A DNA stretch of 64,000 bases from NCBI GenBank assembly GCA_030390025.1, contig CM059432.1, positions 22,570,001 to 22,634,000 of the forward strand, written 5' to 3'. Positions 6,071 through 48,352 of the stretch are shown here, one piece after another (position 1 is the first letter of the stretch; every line of letters starts with the position of its first letter). This DNA comes from Squalus acanthias. Lineage: Eukaryota. Both the position numbers and the translations under genes were made by a program. The notes below the pieces were generated by a model. It ran no database searches, was not told where the DNA came from, and saw nothing but the letters and a program-made list of their open reading frames with translations.

Positions 6071-7668
6071 ATGTGGACTCTGTTGGCAGCCGACGACCTG
6101 CTCCATCGTGAACGTCGGAGGCTTCTTAGGAGGAGAGCACTGCAGGGACAAAGGCCTGGAGATATGCAGGGTCAAAGGCCTGGAGATGTGCAGGGACAAA
6201 GGCCTGGAGATGTGCAGGGATAAAGGCCTGGAGATGTGCAGGGACAAAGGCCTGGAGATGTGCAGGGATAAAGGCCTGGAGATGTGCAGGCACAAAGGCC
6301 TGGAGATGTGCAGGGACAAAGGCCTGGAGATATGCAGGACAAAGGCCTGGAGATGTGCAGGCACAAAGGCCTGGAGATATGCAGGGACAAAGGCCAGGAG
6401 ATGTGCAGGGACAAAGGCCTGGAGATGTGCAGGGACAAAGGCCTGGAGATGTGCAGGGACAAAGGCCTGGAGATATGCAGGACAAAGGCCTGGAGATGTG
6501 CAGGGACAAAGGCCTGGAGATATGCAGCGAGAGAGGCATGGAGAAAGACAGCAACATGTGGCCAGAGGGAGAAGGCATAACAGGGCTGGCAACAGGAGAC
6601 CTTACTCTCCCAGGGTATTGTGGCAGCTGTTCTCGTACCTCCATTTCACTGAGGAGCAGCGTCTGCGAAGGCTGCACTTCAGCAAGGAGGTGGTAACAGA
6701 GCTCTGCCACCTCCTCCAGCCAGACCTCGAGCCTCAGACTAGGGTGAGGACGGCTCTCTCAGTGGCAGCGAAGGTGACCATCACGTTCAACTTCTATGCC
6801 AACGGTTCATTCCAACGTGCAACAGGAGACATCTCCAATGTGTCCCAGTATGCCATGAACCGCTCCATCCGAGATGTCATGGATGCACTGTATCGAAGGA
6901 GAAGGGAGTACATTTCCTTCCCTATGACCAGAGAGAAGCAGCACGAGCATGCATGTGGATTTGTCAGGATAGCGGGCTTCCCAATGGTGCAGGGCACCAT
7001 TGACTGCACCCACATTGCCTTGCAGGCACCTCAGAACAATCCTGAGGTATTCCGCAACCGAAAAGACTACCACTCGCTGAATGTTCAGCTGGTGTGCGAC
7101 CACACACACAGATTCCTAACTGTCAATGCCCAATATCCTGCAAGTAGCCACAATGCTTTTATCCTATGCCAGACCAGTGTGCCAGATCTTTTCCAGCCAC
7201 CACATCAAGCTTGTGGGTGGCTGCTCAGTGACAAGGGCTATCTGCTCTCCACCTGGCTGATGACTCCCCTACGCAACTCAAACACTCCTGCCCAGCACTC
7301 CTACAATGACAGTCATGCCACCACCAGGAGCGTGATTGAGCAGGCGATAGGAGTGCTGAAACAACGGTTCCGCTGCCTTGACCGCTTGGGAGGAGTCCTC
7401 CTGTACTCTCCTCATCGGTTCTCCCTATTTGTTGTCGTCTGCTGCATGCTACACAACTTCGCTATTACCACCAGGCATAGACGCACCACCTCAGGAGGAG
7501 GAGGAGGAGGAAGAGGAGGAGGAGGAGGACCAAGAGCAGGAGGAGAACATGGAGTAGGACAAGGAGCAGCAGCAGCAGCAGCAACAGCAGCGACGGAGGA
7601 GGCATCCAGTCAATAGGGATTCTGCAAGGACAGTCCGTGACCGTCTCATAGCAGCTCGGTTCAACTGA
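6071..7668 (+). pseudogene. Harbinger DDE transposase of element B
   Basis: FNFYANGSFQ, GTIDCTH, NRKDYHSLNVQ, LLSDKGY, RSVIEQAIG (D-D-E present), CCMLHN. Probable native start ATG 6071. Frameshift near 7465; the native C-terminus ...RDRLIAARFN* ends at 7668. Confidence 0.9.
6141..6527 (+). repeat. 24-bp minisatellite (TGCAGGGACAAAGGCCTGGAGATG), about 16 copies, in the transposase 5' coding region
   Basis: Directly visible. Two units are 23 bp (near 6333 and 6477). Confidence 0.95.
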
Positions 7669-25432: not shown

Positions 25433-28400
25433 GGCTGCAGCAGCAGGTTTTAAAGTAAACCCCAAGAAGGCACAGAAAGGACAAAGGGAGGTTCAGTTTC
25501 TTGGGTTAACTCTTCAACCAGGAGAGCGCGCTATAGATGATGTGAAGCGTAAAACGGTCCAGGAACTGCCCCGCCCGGGGTCGATAACTGCCCTCCGATC
25601 ATTCCTGGGTCTGACGGGGTACTGTAGAGAATTCTTTGAGAATTATGAGGTAACGGTGGCTCCTCTACTGAGATTGCTTAGAAAAGGAGTAGATTAGGAA
25701 TGGGATGAGCCCTGTGAGGAGGCTTTTGTACAGTTGAAACGGGACCTGCAAATGGCCCCGGCCCTGGGGGCAATAGACCATACAAAGGTTTCTTTCTTGA
25801 GGTAGCAGCAACAGATGCTAGTCTGGGCGCTGTTTTAATGCAGGAAGTAAATGGGCAGCTGAGACCGTTAGCCTATGCCTCCAGAGTAATAACCGAGGTA
25901 GAAAAAGGAAAGAGGCACTTGCTTGCCACGTTTTGGACGGGAAGACATTTTGCCATATTCACGGGAACCCAGCCCATCACACTCCTCACCCATCACATGC
26001 CAACCCATCTCCTGTTAAAAGGCCGAATTAAAGAGGGAACATTGTCAAGCACTCGGGTAGCTGCGTGGACCCTACAGTTAGAAGGAATGGATCTGAGAGT
26101 AAGAGCACTAAGCGAGCCAAAGTTAGCAGCGAACCTTAATCATCAGGGTGGATCTCATACCTGTACAGTAGAGAGGGTGTGGGAGACAGAGGGTGGATTT
26201 AAATCCGCTATCCACCCTGAGGGGAGAGATGTATACGTGGATGGGTCCAGTTTTGTGGAGAAGGGGGAACGTAAAACAGGGTGTGGAATTTATGACCCAA
26301 AAAAAGGGATGGGAGTGGCGATTAAGTTGCCCACCACGCTTAGTGCTCAACAGTAGGAATTGGCAGCCGTAACTTATGTAGTAACGCATCCCACCGAGTT
26401 TCCCCCACCGTATACGATCTGTTCTGACTCCACGTTCACCTGTAATGCCTGTATGGAATATTTGGCGATTTGGGCTAGAAGAGGTTTTACCTCCGCGGAT
26501 TGCAAACTGTTAGTTACCGCACCAATGCTGGCGACTATCGTGGAAGCCATAGGAAAGGGAGGGAAGGACTATTACATGCATAAAGTAAAAGCGCATTCTA
26601 AAACCGAGCCCAGATGGCGGAATGAGGTGTCCCATGGGACCCGTATCAATCTGGAATGGTGGCAACCGTAACCCCGGTAGCCAATACTGTCCCGCTCCCT
26701 CCGGATCTTAAAACGGTACAGTTAGATGATATAGTATTAAAGGCTGTCCTTAGAGAAAAGAGACAGGGCAGACTGTGGAAGGACCCTACGGCGCCAGTGA
26801 TGTGCAGGTTAGGGAAGGCATGTTGTTCAAAGGGACAGTGCCCGAGGGATATCGGTAGGAATTTATGCAACTTGCCCATGGGGGACCAGGGACCGGACAC
26901 CCCGGACCCGAGACGACCTGGAAGCGGGTCGAGGAGGTGGGGTGGTGGCCTCATCTGAGGGAAAATGTAGAGGATTACTGTAAAAACTGTTTAGTGTGTG
27001 CTGCTAACAATCCTGACCCACATAAAAGGAAGGCCCCCCCCCCTCGGACATACCCGTCGACCAGAGGCACCATGGCAGTGTATCCAGATAGATTTTATCG
27101 GACCCTTGCCCACCACTAAGAAAGGCAATAAATACTGTTTAGTTTGGTGGATAATTTCACAAAGTGGGTAGAAGCTTTCCCGTGCAAGTCAGCATTGTGA
27201 ACAGCCAAGACCCTAGTTAGAGAGGTATTCTCCAGATGGGGACTTTCTCGCGTGATAGAGTCAGGCCAGGGCAGTTAATTTTCAGGTCAGTTAATGCAAG
27301 CCACTTTGAAATTGCTTGGAATTGAAGGGAAATGGCATGTGACCCACAACCCACAATCATCGGGGATTGTGGAAAGAATGAACCGTACGTTGAAGTTGGC
27401 CCTACGAAAGGAATTAAACAAACAGCACACTAAGTGAGATGAGGGACTTCCCCTAATCCTTATGGTGATACATAGTAACAGATCCAAAGGAACGGGTCAC
27501 TCCCCTCATGAATTAGTAACGGGGAGACCCATGCGAACCCCCACACACCTGTTGGTCCCCACTCTGACTGATAAACAAATTAAGGAGGTGACTCGGGACA
27601 AGTTCCTGAGCGACCTGTGGGGAACTTTAAAGGAATTGAACTTGAGGGCCGCCCACAACATTGGGAAGATACACCAAATGCAACCGACTACACTTGGCTC
27701 CGAGTAAACTCCAGGAATGGGAAGTAGGGAGCCAGGTAATGGTACGAAACTATGCGAGGATGGGTGTCTTTACAAGGGACCGTGTAGTATTGTTGACAAA
27801 GCTAGTCCTATGGTGTTTGCAGTTCAGTTACCTAAGAAAATTAAGTGGTTTCATATTAACCAAATGAAGCTTTTTCAGCTCAGCAGTGCCAGGAGACAAC
27901 AAGCCACGATCATGAGCATGGTGAGCCGGATTTATCCTCTCCAGTGGGATGATGAAGAAGGAGTGCCTAATGGGACATCCCCACTCAGTGAGGTGCCCTT
28001 ACCTGAAGTGGCGCCTCCACAGGTACAGTATGATCCAAATGAAGGTGGACAGGACACGGGAGCTGTGGAAACCTCCTCGCCCCAGGTCTGGAACCACCTC
28101 CTGACCGCAGATGAGTTCAACAGAACCCTCCTACCACACGGCACCCTTGAAGTATCATCAGTGTAGGGGGTGGTGGTGTGTGTGTCAGCTTCACCTCTGA
28201 CTTCTGAGCGGTTCGAATCGCTCCCACTCCCTTGGTTCTAGACCTTGGACTTATTTGGGGGTTGTGACAAAAGTGCAGCAGACAACTGGTTTGGTGCAAG
28301 AACTTTTGATCTTTATTCAAGAGAGTAAATATAACACAACAATCTTAACACTCTAATAAAATGGGGAACACTTCGGTACATACGAGGGAAATCACATTAG

Positions 28401-29586
28401 AAGAATACCTCACCCCTCCCAATCCCACTTTACTAGCTAAGTTGGGCTGTAGAGGACCAGGGATAATGCTCACCAAACGAATCCTTGACAGTTGAGCTGG
28501 TTCGCGGTTTCGGGGTTCGCTGGATTGGATTTATCGGGTGAGTACCCACTTTTCTTTGGTTAGAGCTAGGGTTTAGAGTCTTTTTAAGTAAAAAGTTTTG
28601 TAAGGCCCTTGTTGCCGCGAGGTGTCCGATGGTCACTGAGGCGGTCGCTCTGGTCTCTTCTTGCATGTCGGCCTACTTCTGGAGCTGTTGGCCTCCTTTG
28701 TTGAACGGTCTTGTTTTCGAGCTGTCGACCTCCTGGCTGGACACGTAACGGCTGAACGGTTGTACTGGAGAGCTGCTTCCTTGCTGCTTGCTGAACTCCT
28801 TGCTGTTTGCTTGTTGAACTTGTTTCTGTTGAACTGTGTACGGTTGTACTCGAGAACTCCTTTCTGTTGTAACTGTGTAACTGCTCCACCCTTGAACTTG
28901 TAGAGAACTTGTTGTAACTGCTGAACTGACTTCTTGAGAAAACAGGCCCTCAATTATACTAATTGGGGCCTCCCAATCAGTCCCGGTTTATTGTAAGATT
29001 TTGGCGGGCTCGTTAACAGTAACTTGTTTGTTAATGTGTGAAGTGGTTTCAGGATGGCTCCATCCTGTCGATCTGCTTGCTTGATTGTAGCTGATTGTTC
29101 TCACGTTGTGAGTTTCTTGACTGGGCCTGGGATTTCTAAAGAGTGGGTCAAAGTGATCTGCTTTATGCATGATTTGATGGGTCCTGTAATTTGGGTGGGG
29201 ACTGCTCTTCCTCAGGTCTATTGTTAGGATGTTAATGTCTGATAGGGGCCGATTTAACTCCAAGTGAGGTCATGCGGTTCCCCAGACAGTTTGATTAACT
29301 CCAATATCCAAACTGTCTTTTACAGAGGTTGAACCCAACTCCCTTTGCAGCCTTTTCTCCTTTACAAGTCCAGACAAGTCTTTCGAAATACCAAATCTTG
29401 TTTTTTTTGCTCTAAATGTCCTTCGGTTAGGCCCAATGCATTTCATCACCCTGAAGTAGTTAGAAAAGAGTCCAAAGCCCTTCTCCTTAGGGTATGTCTC
29501 TGAGTTTTGGGGGATCTGTGAATTTTGAAAATCTTACATCAGTGGTAGGAGTGAGAAAATTGCCCAAAGCAGGAAAAGAAAAGTAG
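25433..29586 (+). pseudogene. pol: Retrovirus-like pol: RT C-terminus/thumb, tether (degenerate RNase H), RNase H, integrase; interrupted by a solo LTR
   Basis: GFKVNPKKAQ...VQFLG, LRSFLGLTGYCR, RPLAYASR. Second RNase H: YVDGSS...SAQQ*EL...ICSDS...KVKAH. Integrase: HHCC (AHGGPGTGH...CKNCLVC), IQIDFIGPLP, PQSSGIVERMNRTLK. Several stops and frameshifts. The RT catalytic core and gag are missing. Confidence 0.9.
28162..29538 (-). mobile_element. Solo LTR (1377 bp) inserted near the end of pol
   Basis: TGTAGG...CTTACA termini with 4-bp TSD TCAG (28158-28161, 29539-29542). Removing it restores the pol frame ...EVSSVVGVRKLPKAGKEK*. Strand inferred from a minus-strand AATAAA near 28312. Confidence 0.85.
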
Positions 29587-29720
29587 GAAGCCCCGTTTTG
29601 TTTCGTTAAAGAAAAACATCAGTAATGAGAGCCTGAACTAATGGGGTGGACATAGGGTGCAAGGGCGGGAGTAACACTCTGTTTTTGTCCCTTATCCCCA
29701 CAGGCAAGAAGATATATAAA

Positions 29721-31880
29721 ATGAAGGAATTATTCTGGCCAATGATCGGGATTCTGCTCTATCTTGAAGATTCCACAACAGCCTATTTGGCATACTGGAC
29801 CACCACTAACTATTTTCCCTACAACAGTTCGATTGTAGTTGCCCTGGAGACACTACCCCTGGGACGCCACTCGAAACATTACCCTCCAGTACATCAAGGG
29901 TGATGGCGAAACCGCGTGTTCAGGAACAGTGTGGGTTACCACGTATGAGGTCCAGGAAGGTAGGGGGTGTATGCATAAAATGCAAAGATCGCCCCACCGG
30001 GGCCACGGGTGCGGTTCTTTCAAGCAGAACCAGGTGACCATTCAAGGTACTATCAAATAGGGAACCCTCGAGGGAATGTAGGAAGCCCGGCCCAATCCCG
30101 AGCAGCGGAAGACACTCTATTGTGTTGGCCCCGATGGTGGAAAAATCATGAGGGAATTTACGGATGTGTATAACCCAAGTGGGGTAACAGATGGGTTCCA
30201 CGGATGAGACCAGTTGTACGATGTTATCCCATGATAGAGCTAAGGAACTCTATCAATGGAATAACAACGATACCGGTATTAGCACCTATCACGTAAGGGG
30301 TTGTGGTGATGGAAGTACGGTTATACATGCAGTAGAATTAAAAGTTCGACCGAAAATTCCCCTCCCTATGAATAAAACACAATCACGGAAGGACAACATA
30401 CAACCCAGGTAACTTGCCCTAAACACACTCCAGGACCATCAAATGGGTTAGTGGTAATCCCAACTTGGATGATATTGTACATGATGTGCATCACGAGGTG
30501 GTGCCTGTAATATTGAATCTGACCGAGGTGGGACTACCGAACTGGTGCAAGCCAGAGACAGCGCGGTTATATGGGAGGATGATGCAGGAATTAATCGAGG
30601 GATTTTGGGAGAGGGCCAGCACAACACTGGCGGAATCGGAATTAGAGCTGTTATATCGCAAGGGCACTAAGGAGGGTAATGGATTTAACGATACCTTTGG
30701 GAAAAATAGTACCGAGATCATTGAAGAAAACAATGTTGGTTATGGGATTAAAGAGAACTATATCAGAAGGCGACGGGGTCTGATAAATGATGCTGCGACT
30801 ATTTTTAACACTGGAACCTCCCTCGTTAATAGCTTAGATTTGGTCAGCCTGGATCAATCTGTAAAGGCAGTTAGAAATCATCTAAGGGAAATTTTGAATA
30901 AAATAAATAGTCTGGAACAAGAGGAATTGAAGGTGAACCAAATTATGACCATTCATCTGCAGGAAGTGGTTAAATATTTATAATCCCATGCTAAAAAGAT
31001 AAATCAAATTTTAATGGAGGATCGGAATGCCTCTAGTGAGGTCACGCGAAATGATGTGTGTGTAATGTATGGATCTTGGTTAGTGGAACAAGCTCGAGAA
31101 AACCTGTGGCGCATTGCTGAGGGGAAGCTTCCCTCGGTGGTGACTGATCACACCTGAGGGCAATGTCCACTTACCAATTTATCATGAATATGTGTAAAGT
31201 CAGGGGGTTGGTACAGGTGTACCCGGTGAAACATGAATGCCATTTGCAGGAACAGAACAACATCACTCTGTTAGGGATGGTATTGTATTATCCCATTTTG
31301 CCCAAAAGGGCGACCCCAAATCCTCTATTCCGCATGGAGAATATAGGAGTACATCAGGGAGACCACTTAATAAGGTATGACAAACCCCTGAAGTATGTGA
31401 CCCGGGTGGATGGGACCACATGGGTGACCCCAGATCTTCTGGGTGTGCTCAAGCTCGGGACGCATTTATCTGCCCTTATGATGTGGTAGAACACGCAGCC
31501 CCTGCGTGCAGGTTTGATTGGGATGGGATAGAATGGAACTGCACCATGAAAGTGATTGCGGGGCAGCATTTCCCCGTAAGGTCTGCGTATCGAGAGAAGA
31601 GTGAATATTGTGTCACCACAATGCACCGGGAGTACCAGTACGGTAACGACCTGACTTGTCCTATTGCGGCGGGAACTTTTTGTTTTACCCCAGTCCAACC
31701 TGTGAGACGTGGGGCGCAGGTTTTATTAAACATTTATTTGCACAGGCAAGTAGATATCGTCGTAGAAGATGAGTTAAAGGAACACTTACACCAGTACATG
31801 ACTCAATTCAGCTATGACATTCCACCTCTGCCAGAACACTTGGTAGAGTTAATGAGACACGTTAGTCAGTCCCAAAAGCC
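29721..31880 (+). pseudogene. env: env-like fusion glycoprotein gene (F-protein-like), disrupted and 3'-truncated
   Basis: Directly downstream of pol. Furin site RRRR (30765-30776), then GLINDAATIFNTGTSLVNSLDL, heptad-like helices and a Cys-rich domain (PDLLGC...FICPYD...CRF...NCTM...YCVTT...TCP...FCF). N-glycosylation sequons (NSS, NLT, NDT, NIT). Confidence 0.8.
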
Positions 31881-31899
31881 CAGAAAAATCGTGACTTAT

Positions 31900-32345
31900 T
31901 TCTGTTTTTCCCTGATGTCACCTTAGTCCCTGATGCCTTATTACCTTTGTTACTCTCTCTGTCCCTTCCTGACCCACTCTGCTTATTTTTACCCAAAACT
32001 CTACTCTGCTCTTGAGTCTTGACATTTCTCTCACTGCTTTTAAATTTACTCTTTCCTGAATCCTCCCATGCCCCCCCCCCCCTTCATTAGTTTAAAGCCC
32101 TGTCTCCTGCCCTAGTTATTCAGTTTGCCAGGACACTGGTCCATCCCGGTTTAAGTGGAGCCCGTCCCAATGGAACATTTCCCTCTTTCCCCAGTACTGG
32201 TGTCATTGCCCCATGAACTGAAACCCCTTCCTCCCACACCACTCTTTGAGCCACGCATTTAAACCTCTAATCTGTTTGTCCCTATGCCAATTTGTGCGTG
32301 GCTCAGGTAACAATCCAGAGATTATTGCCTTTGAGGTTCTGCTTT
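31900..32345 (-). mobile_element. CR1 fragment (ORF1 esterase end and ORF1/ORF2 junction) that truncates env
   Basis: The minus strand reads ...LNAWLKEWCGRKGFQFMGQ*HQYWGKREMFHWDGLHLNRDGT..., homologous to the ORF1 end at 49130-49303. Confidence 0.75.
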
Positions 32346-33035
32346 TTCAATGAGCTGGCACAGACACGGTGGGCTGAATGGCCTCCTTCTGTGCTGTATC
32401 ATTCCATGATTCGATAGAACAAGAAGTAGAATTCTTACCTGGTATAAGACCTTGGTTCAGCTACATCCATAATACTGTGCCCAGCTTTGTTTCCTCCACA
32501 TGGCAGTAGATATCTAGGTCCTGGAAAAGGTCCAGAGGAGGGCACTCGATCGATACCTAATTTAAGGCTCGTTTAGTTATCAGGACAGGCTTATGGAAAT
32601 GGGACTTTTTACTCTGGAAAAGCATAACCTTCAAAGGAATACAATTAAGGTCTTTAAAGTAATGAAGGGATTAGAATCTATCCAAGTGGATAGATTAGTT
32701 GAGCGAGTTAGATGAGTTAGATTAGATCCGGGTAGTATTTCATTGACCTTTGAAATAGATTACTAGTGGTGGGTTTGGATTCACTGTAAGCCTTTGAAAG
32801 GAAGCTAGACAAGTTGCTGTGAGTGGAAAACTCTCAAGTTATAGAAGGTAGAAGGGTTAACTGGGACTAGTGATATCAGTCATTGTGGTCTCCTGAAACT
32901 TGCTTGATTGCCGTTAGGGGTCAGAGAACAATTTCCCAGAGCCTTTTCCTAAAGGGGATTAAGATTTTTTTCTTTCTCTGTATATTTTTTGCTTTTCCCA
33001 GGTGATTGCATAACTGAGTTGGGGAGCTGGTTAAT

Positions 33036-47191: not shown

Positions 47192-47549
47192 CACAAAAAC
47201 ACATGTTGAGGCACTTGCACACGTCCCTGCTAACAAGGAACCTCTGGCTGAAGAACAAGAACGAAAGGTGAAAATAAATAAGCAAGAGAATTTTTGCTTG
47301 AATTATTTGAAGCATAAATTTCCTTCATGATGAACAAATATATTAAAGCATACCATGCTGGAACAGGTAACAAAATGTATTGTACAACCACGTACAATGA
47401 ATTATACAATATGGATTAATCATTGATCAGTGACAAAACAACGAACCGTAATCTTTTTGATACATCTGTGATCAGGCCCAGTCAAAACATAGGAATTGGA
47501 TCACGTGACTGATGGGTGGCAAAACGAGTTATAATATTGCCCTTACTCC

Positions 47550-48123
47550 TGCTCCAGAGACCAGGTAAGGCCTCAGAGCGTCGGCGGGAGTTTCAGCGGT
47601 GGCAGTGGGCCTATAAAAGGCTCCAGAGATCAGGTAAGGTCTCAGAGCGTCGGCGGGAGTTTCAGCGGCGGCAGTGGGCCTATAAAAGGCTCCAGAGACC
47701 AGGTAAGGCCTCAGAGCGTCGGCAGGAGTGTCAGCGGCGGCAGTGGGCCTATAAAAGGCTCCAGAGACCAGGTAAGGCCTCAGGGCGTCGGCGGGAGTGT
47801 CAGCAGCGGCAGTGGGCCTATAAAAGGCTCCAGAGACCAGGTAAGGCCTCAGAGCGTCGGCGAGAGTGTCAGCAGCGGCAGTGGGCCTATAAAAGGCTCC
47901 AGAGACCAGGTAAGGCCTCAGAGCGTCGGCGGGAGTTTCAGCGGCGGTAGCGGGCCTATAAAAGGCTCCAGAGACCAGGTAAGGCCTCAGAGCGTCAGTG
48001 GGAGTTTCAGCGGCGGCAGTGGGCCTATAAAAGGCTCCAGAGACCAGGTAAGGCCTCAGAGCGTCAGTGGGAGTTTCAGCGGCGGCAGTGGGCCTATAAA
48101 AGGCTCCAGAGACCAGGTAAGGC
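47550..48123 (+). repeat. 69-bp tandem monomer array (8 units plus a partial) forming the CR1 5' end
   Basis: Units start near 47550, 47619, 47688, 47757, 47826, 47895, 47964, 48033, 48102. Each full unit has CAGGTAAG and CTATAAAAG. Confidence 0.95.
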
Positions 48124-48352
48124 GTACCAGTCTCTGAACTCGGAGGGAAAAATAATCGAAGTGTGACGTCACCAAAAAACAGGTAAGTGATTGGTTGGTG
48201 AGTATTTCTCTCTTTTTAAGCTTAAATTCTGTGATGTTAAATTTCTAGGGTCTCTGTGGTATAGTGGGGACAGTTGGTAAATAAAGCGCCCTAGAGTATA
48301 TCTGTAACTGGGGTATTGAATACATTTTTTAATTTAATTAAGGGAGTAGGTC

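Follow-up and report, generated by a model that had tools for sequence, protein, structure and literature searches.

A decayed shark env gene predicted to encode a paramyxovirus-F-type fusogen with a likely immunoglobulin head

In the F proteins of paramyxoviruses, pneumoviruses and baculoviruses and in errantivirus Env (PF00523, PF12259), which are alike in fold, a furin site is followed by a fusion segment, a Cys-rich ectodomain and a C-terminal anchor (PMC13524379). An F-type fold has also been published for foamy virus Env (class Ib; Fernandez et al., PMC11468914) and for the Env of lokiretroviruses (Loki), vertebrate retrovirus-like elements with dual RNase H (Wang and Han, PMC7947760). 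Clade III endogenous retroviruses (ERVs) resembling snakehead retrovirus (SnRV) are common in cartilaginous fish (PMC4422223; PMC11089739, 2843 loci in six genomes). Here we describe an ERV in 64,000 nucleotides of the shark Squalus acanthias ("the window"; assembly GCA_030390025.1, contig CM059432.1, positions 22,570,001 to 22,634,000). We are confident that the env gene at 29721-31894, which is broken and 3'-truncated, belongs to a dead copy of a high-copy ERV, likely of the SnRV-like grade, that it encoded a predicted class Ib, F-type fusogen with a likely V-type immunoglobulin (IgV) head, and that the F-type Env was most likely inherited within retroviruses. F-like Envs in Loki, foamy viruses and errantiviruses, and SnRV-like ERVs in sharks, are known already. 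In the literature covered, from which subscription journals are mostly missing, we found no description of an SnRV-type Env as F-like or Ig-headed, nor of the combination of an F-like Env with an SnRV-like lineage, the Ig head or the homology to SnRV Env.

The Env core is predicted to be a class Ib fusogen of the paramyxovirus F type. The structure was modelled as a monomer with AlphaFold2 from a natural sibling copy, L007, which keeps a 586-codon open frame and is ~81% identical to the window env; 37 relatives were supplied with it. Mean pLDDT was 66.7, with blocks of the beta core at 80-96 and the cleavage loop and fusion segment (residues 113-186) below 50. The predicted features of L007 include a furin site, a fusion segment, two heptad repeats (HR1 and HR2) and a C-terminal anchor. 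Cleavage is placed at residue 157 and the anchor at about 561-585, leaving some 400 ectodomain residues between them, unlike the short post-cleavage ectodomain of a gamma-type transmembrane subunit (TM).

Fold searches with this model converged on F proteins. All 36 rows listed by Foldseek against the PDB are paramyxovirus or pneumovirus F (best E 5.3e-11). An independent VIA search of 48161 chains placed class Ib fusogens in its top 16 rows (Z 5.9-10.6), followed by coronavirus spike at 5.3 and unrelated rows at 5.2 or less. Newcastle disease virus F scored Z 10.6 and human parainfluenza virus 3 F 10.5 (root mean square deviation, rmsd, 6.3; 337 aligned); foamy virus Env (PDB 8rm0) was nearly tied with the best paramyxovirus F (Z 9.6, rmsd 5.1, 292 aligned). 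A search of predicted viral structures was led by paramyxovirus and baculovirus F and lispivirus G, with walleye and foamy virus Envs lower, and the best ESM Atlas match was PF00523 (0.93, 204 of 256 features). No class Ia retroviral TM appeared among the best 50 fold matches listed.

Sequence comparisons reached less far. Neither the window piece nor L007 had a match in word-based protein searches; an exhaustive search gave 44 relatives. Pfam and PDB sequence searches returned no viral fusogen, TLV_coat or gp41; a weak HERV-K row (E 0.027) covers HR2 and the anchor alone. A pattern search found CX6CC or an immunosuppressive domain (ISD) in none of five proteins, and L007 also lacks CXXC, in agreement with the preliminary description, which had reported neither CX6CC nor an immunosuppressive motif. 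That description had also read the gene as F-type rather than as a gamma-type pair of surface and transmembrane subunits (SU/TM). As a structure prediction this holds, by Foldseek, VIA, ESM Atlas and the missing gamma motifs: similarity to the F fold was found, with no match to TLV_coat or gp41, but no sequence profile tied the protein to Mononegavirales or baculovirus F above cut-off. The family differs from paramyxovirus, pneumovirus, baculovirus and errantivirus proteins in its identity to them of only 9-15%, its own N-terminal domain, and its setting in a vertebrate retrovirus with canonical reverse transcriptase (RT). Foamy virus Env has the same F-type core, to which a membrane-spanning leader is added at the N-terminus and a receptor-binding domain (RBD) between the subunits, whereas the shark family has an N-terminal Ig-like addition and a zinc knuckle in Gag (PMC11468914). 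Traits of Spumaretrovirinae are missing, since Gag of a younger sister family matches zf-CCHC (E 0.0015) and the Env addition is N-terminal rather than an internal RBD.

Upstream of the core, about 230 N-terminal codons carry Ig motifs (B-strand Cys, C-strand Trp and D/E-x-G-x-Y-x-C) and probably form an Ig domain, likely of the V type. A family profile of 13 sequences searched against the PDB (E up to 10) gave 19 matches, every one an Ig domain, the best at E 0.0021. Strands in a model of the domain are arranged as in V domains, and each of the 50 matches listed is IgV-type (Z 8.3-9.3, rmsd ~3 over ~100 residues, from a model with pLDDT 36); the best, again for a low-confidence model, has Z 9.3 and rmsd 2.9 over 96 aligned residues.

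Between the predicted F and G strands of this domain lies a variable segment of 50-60 residues, which occurs among siblings in two unrelated DNA forms. Thirty of 44 loci have form A, seven form B and none both; the 44 include two duplicates, and 29 were fetched by a form-A query. Among 12 loci fetched by the F core, six have form A, five form B and one neither. The segment in the window matched none of 13 form-A copies and all six form-B copies by blastn, and its flanks are 82-88% identical to both. The F core of the window is likewise 85-87% identical to form-A copies and 86-88% to form-B copies. This pattern resembles that of an exchanged or fast-evolving loop in contact with a receptor. The gamma-type Env of murine and feline leukaemia viruses offers a parallel in RBD-C, an N-terminal IgV-like domain whose variable loops have been shown to bind receptor, as we propose for the shark protein; in those viruses it is mounted on a class Ia SU/TM that has CXXC, ISD and CX6CC, and in the shark family on an F-type core (Hotzel, 10.1101/2024.03.17.585361).

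The Env core appears from profile alignment to be homologous to that of SnRV. HHalign aligned the family profile with residues 514-832 of SnRV Env over 284 columns (probability 94.6, E 6.6e-8), with the CP-x5-GP start, the RRGL cleavage site and the later cysteines in register. The probability was 1.1 or less for all but one of the 63 control proteins; the exception is a lungfish ERV-L-like model that holds an env-like piece. The N-terminus of SnRV Env resembles Ig domains of contactin and perlecan (E 0.05). Traits of the 5' part, which the window copy has lost, were read only in a younger sister family. In that family the primer site is complementary to tRNA-Arg(TCG), Gag has a coiled coil and a single zinc knuckle, and a stop codon interrupts the gag frame. 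SnRV Gag shares the coiled coil, the single knuckle and the stop. SnRV also uses an Arg primer site, as Hart is said to have described in 1996. SnRV and the SnRV-like or clade III ERVs of fish and amphibians thus share with the family the same basal RT grade, Env core homology and an Ig-like Env start (PMC4977317, PMC4422223, PMC11089739, PMC12193657). They differ in that the family Env is ~780 residues long against ~1130 in SnRV, with a short tail and a signal peptide in the env exon, and in that sister placement has no support.

Old inheritance within retroviruses is a simpler account of the F-type Env than fresh capture, and the most likely one. An F core is seen in this family, in further families of the same genome and, by profile alignment, in SnRV; it is weaker in walleye and lungfish elements. 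The preliminary description had suggested a fusogen shared with or captured from another virus group. Capture is not shown, and the same fold is present in the Envs of foamy virus, Loki, walleye epsilonretrovirus and, by profile alignment, SnRV. The strongest alternative, which we consider unlikely but not negligible, is that this retroviral lineage took its F gene from a member of the Mononegavirales, a lispivirus or a baculovirus, independently of Loki and foamy virus. Capture keeps this standing because non-retroviral proteins rank higher by structure (E 1e-14 to 1e-12 for the F proteins of paramyxoviruses and baculoviruses and for lispivirus G, E 7e-9 to 2e-5 for walleye and foamy Envs) and because published work leans to repeated gains: Wang and Han 2022 favour independent env gains (PMC9040795), and Viro3D argues for many transfers (PMC12583693). 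However, large inserts in foamy and walleye Envs may depress whole-chain scores, and foamy Env is within ~1 Z of paramyxovirus F. Moreover, RTs of several branches accompany F-type Env, namely those of this family, of two more families in the genome, of SnRV and of the lungfish ERV-L-like model, and homology at the sequence level extends to retroviral Envs only. No donor can be named, because nothing from Mononegavirales or baculovirus F passed the cut-off in sequence searches.

We also offer, tentatively, a wider scenario, which we hold to be somewhat less likely than not. The F-type Env may be ancestral to all retroviruses, having been kept by Loki, foamy viruses, SnRV-like and some ERV-L-like elements and walleye epsilonretroviruses and later replaced elsewhere by gamma- and beta-type Envs; the SnRV-like branch would then have added an IgV head whose loop, resembling complementarity-determining region 3, was swapped as a receptor-specificity cassette. 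For SnRV, a live virus whose Env is an orphan, this would provide both a fold and a testable mechanism of entry. The family sets an F-type fusogen on the canonical-retrovirus side, beside SnRV with its unclassified Env type, and together with the Loki, foamy and walleye Envs it bears on the source of retroviral env, making testable one scenario left open in PMC7947760 and PMC9040795. Coronavirus S1 and the foamy RBD are two ways of equipping this scaffold with a receptor module (PMC11468914); an F core with an Ig head would make a third. The walleye epsilonretrovirus Envs WEHV1 and WDSV, which have been described as a distinct unclassified type (PMC9967133), match the F-type model at E 6.7e-9 and 1.8e-5 (BFVD rows 25 and 42).

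The lineage of the element was read from two RT trees, one of 54 rows (LG+C20) and one of 48 rows (LG+G4) that included the 88-residue piece from the window. The 54-row tree excluded 68 of 122 RT pieces, mostly gypsy, and retained 15 gypsy sequences as outgroup; its Loki rows are database proteins matched by eye to the alignment of PMC7947760. The family falls within canonical retroviruses (support 100/99), outside Metaviridae and hence away from errantiviruses and Ty3/gypsy, and also outside the gamma/epsilon group. It joins a basal grade with SnRV, ERV-L-like, Ovex1-like, frog and coelacanth elements, in which the branching order lacks resolution; foamy virus RT was not included in the trees. 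The RT of a near relative (L036) is 44.7% identical to that of SnRV over 262 residues. We conclude that the element likely belongs to the SnRV-like (class III) grade. Four pol proteins of birds and turtles in which the RT active site is degenerate (P0070, P0076, P0077 and P0072) are Ovex1-like (PMC2717909) and fall in the same basal grade.

These trees also bear on whether the element is a lokiretrovirus (lokiortervirus) that would extend that lineage to cartilaginous fish, which we judge very improbable. Dual RNase H and an F-like Env, the hallmarks of Loki, are both present here, as is, by eye, a GP-x-x-G start of the core like that in Loki Env, but the hallmarks are common to other lineages and not diagnostic (PMC7947760). 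The best pol matches are named "NYNRIN-like", and Loki integrase is placed near CGIN1/NYNRIN in the same report; the pol search returned both SnRV (P0075, which matches the SnRV row of the PMC7947760 alignment) and proteins matching its Loki rows. Against this, Loki forms a separate RT clade (100/100) with the family outside it, and a forced grouping of the two is rejected (approximately unbiased, AU, test, p 0.024). The RT motifs LPQGFHNSP and APTVA agree by eye with the SnRV row and not with the Loki rows (CPFGY, LSRWP). An N-terminal extension such as the Ig-like module of the shark family is missing from Loki-Xtr Env, and Loki was found in none of six Chondrichthyes genomes (PMC7947760). 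The frog proteins are not Loki either. The family Env also has no sequence match to PF00523. On the trees, the AU test and the RT motifs, lokiretrovirus identity was rejected.

Several points weigh against our reading of the element as an SnRV-like ERV with an Ig-headed, F-type Env. The fold was modelled from sibling L007 and not from the window copy, and whole-model TM-scores in Foldseek are just 0.29-0.36 with large rmsd for the monomer. No member of the family matches Pfam Fusion_gly or Baculo_F (PF00523, PF12259) above cut-off, the best Baculo_F score (E 0.0011, in one of 19 homologues) lying below it, and PDB sequence searches gave no match above cut-off. The Ig model is poor (mean pLDDT 36.2, 44-65 within the domain; best Foldseek E 1.1e-3), and ESM Atlas Ig scores of 0.79-0.81 are a lead only. 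The Ig profile of the family and the Ig-like stretch of SnRV fail to align (probability 0.2), L007 has no significant BLASTP match to SnRV Env (E 0.15), and the RT tree, whose basal order lacks resolution, does not make the family sister to SnRV.

If the Env worked as its predicted parts suggest, it would have bound a receptor, been cleaved and fused membranes. A spliced mRNA would give a precursor with a signal peptide, which furin would cleave at RRRR, and the N-terminal part, comprising the Ig domain and the F2-like strands, would remain on the C-terminal part. The Ig head, with its variable loop differing between sibling lineages, would bind the cell receptor, so that a single protein would combine the jobs of paramyxovirus H/HN/G and F. 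The fusion segment would then enter the target membrane, and HR1 and HR2 would refold into a six-helix bundle. The family presumably spread by reinfection with env under purifying selection; the window copy would later have decayed, gained a repeat between pol and env and lost both ends, with a deletion joining env to antisense CR1.

The element itself lies on the + strand from 25436 to ~31894, is decayed, and has lost both ends. Its features, with the evidence for each, are as follows.

25436-25717, + strand: C-terminal remnant of RT; the element is truncated 5' of here, with no gag, protease or 5' long terminal repeat (LTR) (RVT_1 E 0.049; sibling blastn matches start at 25436-25441).
25718-26229, + strand: tether (degenerate first RNase H) of pol (PF17917 E 1.2e-12, PF17919 E 1.2e-8).
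26230-26671, + strand: second, catalytic-type RNase H with a YVDGS motif and one stop inside (PF00075 E 2e-5; translation).
26640-28143, + strand: integrase and end of pol, with several stops and frameshifts (Integrase_H2C2 E 1.1e-15; tblastn with sister-family pol, 49.5% over 432 residues).
28144-29536, no strand assigned: younger high-copy repeat inserted between pol and env (missing in five of five siblings compared across the insertion point).
29680-29703, + strand: pyrimidine tract and CAG just 5' of env, a likely env splice acceptor (sequence).
29721-29783, + strand: env ATG and signal-peptide-like stretch, judged by eye (translation; same position in sibling L002).
29930-30350, + strand: likely Ig V-type domain, broken here by frameshifts and a stop (tblastn to sibling L002; family profile; low-confidence model).
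30180-30320, + strand: variable segment within the Ig domain, between predicted F and G strands, form B (blastn against form-A and form-B copies).
30415-30764, + strand: F2-like part of the predicted fusogen core, with a frameshift near 30481 (71-81% identity to L007 residues 29-281; model and fold searches).
30765-30776, + strand: predicted furin site RRRR (sequence).
30777-31000, + strand: fusion-peptide-like segment and first heptad helix, with a stop at 30981-30983 (sequence, translation, sibling model).
31001-31894, + strand: F1-like central helix and Cys-rich beta domains, with frameshifts at ~31150 and ~31439 and a small deletion at 31880 (81% identity to L007 residues 376-525).
31892-32347, - strand: piece of a CR1 long interspersed nuclear element (LINE; end of ORF1, start of ORF2), overlapping env by 3 nt (94% identity to L079-L081).

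The pol order is RT, tether, RNase H and integrase, with env downstream; no gag, LTR or 3' end of env was found in the window or within 10 kb on either side. The RT remnant is 89% identical to the RT of sibling L038 over 84 columns. The env stretch is not a chance one, because at least 151 env matches were found among the 150 scored of 6588 candidates; pol has at least 150 matches in the genome. Sibling copies are 83-89% identical to the window copy in DNA. The 1.4-kb repeat at 28144-29536 has 46 matches, mostly at 93-97% identity, and at least 40 copies at ~95%.

The window env departs in several ways from the single frame at 30423..31880 given in the preliminary description. Relative to L007 it has frameshifts near 30389, 30481, 31150 and 31439 and the stop at 30981-30983. 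The proposed start at 30423 leaves 19 codons, up to ~30480, out of frame, and siblings place the start of the core at ~30415 (CPKHTPGP). Nor is the furin site early in the gene, since the ATG at 29721 lies ~700 nt upstream of that start and the signal-peptide stretch and ~230 codons had been missed. Other elements of that account are borne out by the sequence: the RRRR motif at 30765-30776, followed by GLINDAATIFNTGTSLVNSLDL, the heptad helices to ~31000 and the Cys-rich stretch to 31879. An R-x-K/R-R site is found in five of five proteins tested. The fusion-peptide-like segment that had been noted is present, but it is rather polar and is modelled at low confidence. The gene ends before the end of HR2 and the membrane anchor, both of which L007 keeps. 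Loss of the anchor at the CR1 junction, as first proposed, agrees with env ending at ~31894 where antisense CR1 begins, and a deletion fusing the two is probably the best account of the junction. The frames of L079-L081 show CR1 ORF1 and the start of the endonuclease; the 94% identity refers to these three fetched copies out of 39 other scored matches.

Over 40 copies, env has a ratio of non-synonymous to synonymous differences (pN/pS) of 0.30, counted against the commonest codon in each column; the window copy also has 0.30. The low ratio indicates purifying selection on env during the spread of the family, and fits reinfection with decay later. The 40 copies hold 72 stops and 180 frameshifts, the latter an overcount in which in-frame indels are sometimes split in two. 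The window locus is dead, not domesticated. That it or a sibling is a domesticated host fusogen is the least credible alternative: although L007 keeps its 586-codon frame, another family has a 784-codon env, and single unbroken homologues are annotated in bamboo shark and frog, the window copy has at least four frameshifts, a stop and no anchor, the N-terminus of L007 is not intact (upstream stops) and its pN and pS are as in other copies, the 83 matches of the bamboo shark protein in this genome form a dispersed multi-copy family rather than one orthologue, and the 784-codon env sits behind a decayed pol. A 1849-codon "open frame" at C100 was rejected as env, being a tandem repeat running out of env. 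In eight runs guessed to be RNA, 30-45% of the words were present; contigs from these runs span env and the neighbouring repeats alike, so they are uninformative on expression.

Ten env homologues were looked up, five of them from sharks or rays and three from frogs. An LTR pair was found in none of seven stretches of the old family, and in both of two stretches of the young family, where the pairs are 99.3 and 97.8% alike. This younger sister family (L032/L033, L034/L035) has pol ~61-73% identical, 1.6-kb LTRs and a read-through context at the gag TGA, and many of its pol matches are near-identical. More distant families (L096-L101) have the same Env type and different RTs, one of which groups with a Xenopus tropicalis pol. 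In the lungfish gene model (P0109), an F-type env-like piece at residues ~768-946 (HHalign 43.5, E 2.4e-4) lies behind an ERV-L-like pol. Env pieces are also spliced into database models of host genes (P0012, P0015 and P0018; Niban, cadherin and fbxo15), and are probably annotation artefacts or exonised ERV pieces. Elsewhere in the window, tandem arrays of 24-nt and 69-nt units occupy 6074-6624 and 47482-48240. On contig C26, at ~39.0-42.2 Mb (L086), genes for tRNA-Arg(TCG) and tRNA-Ser stand in long tandem arrays with a spacing of 1.62 kb, and there are 429 pattern matches genome-wide.

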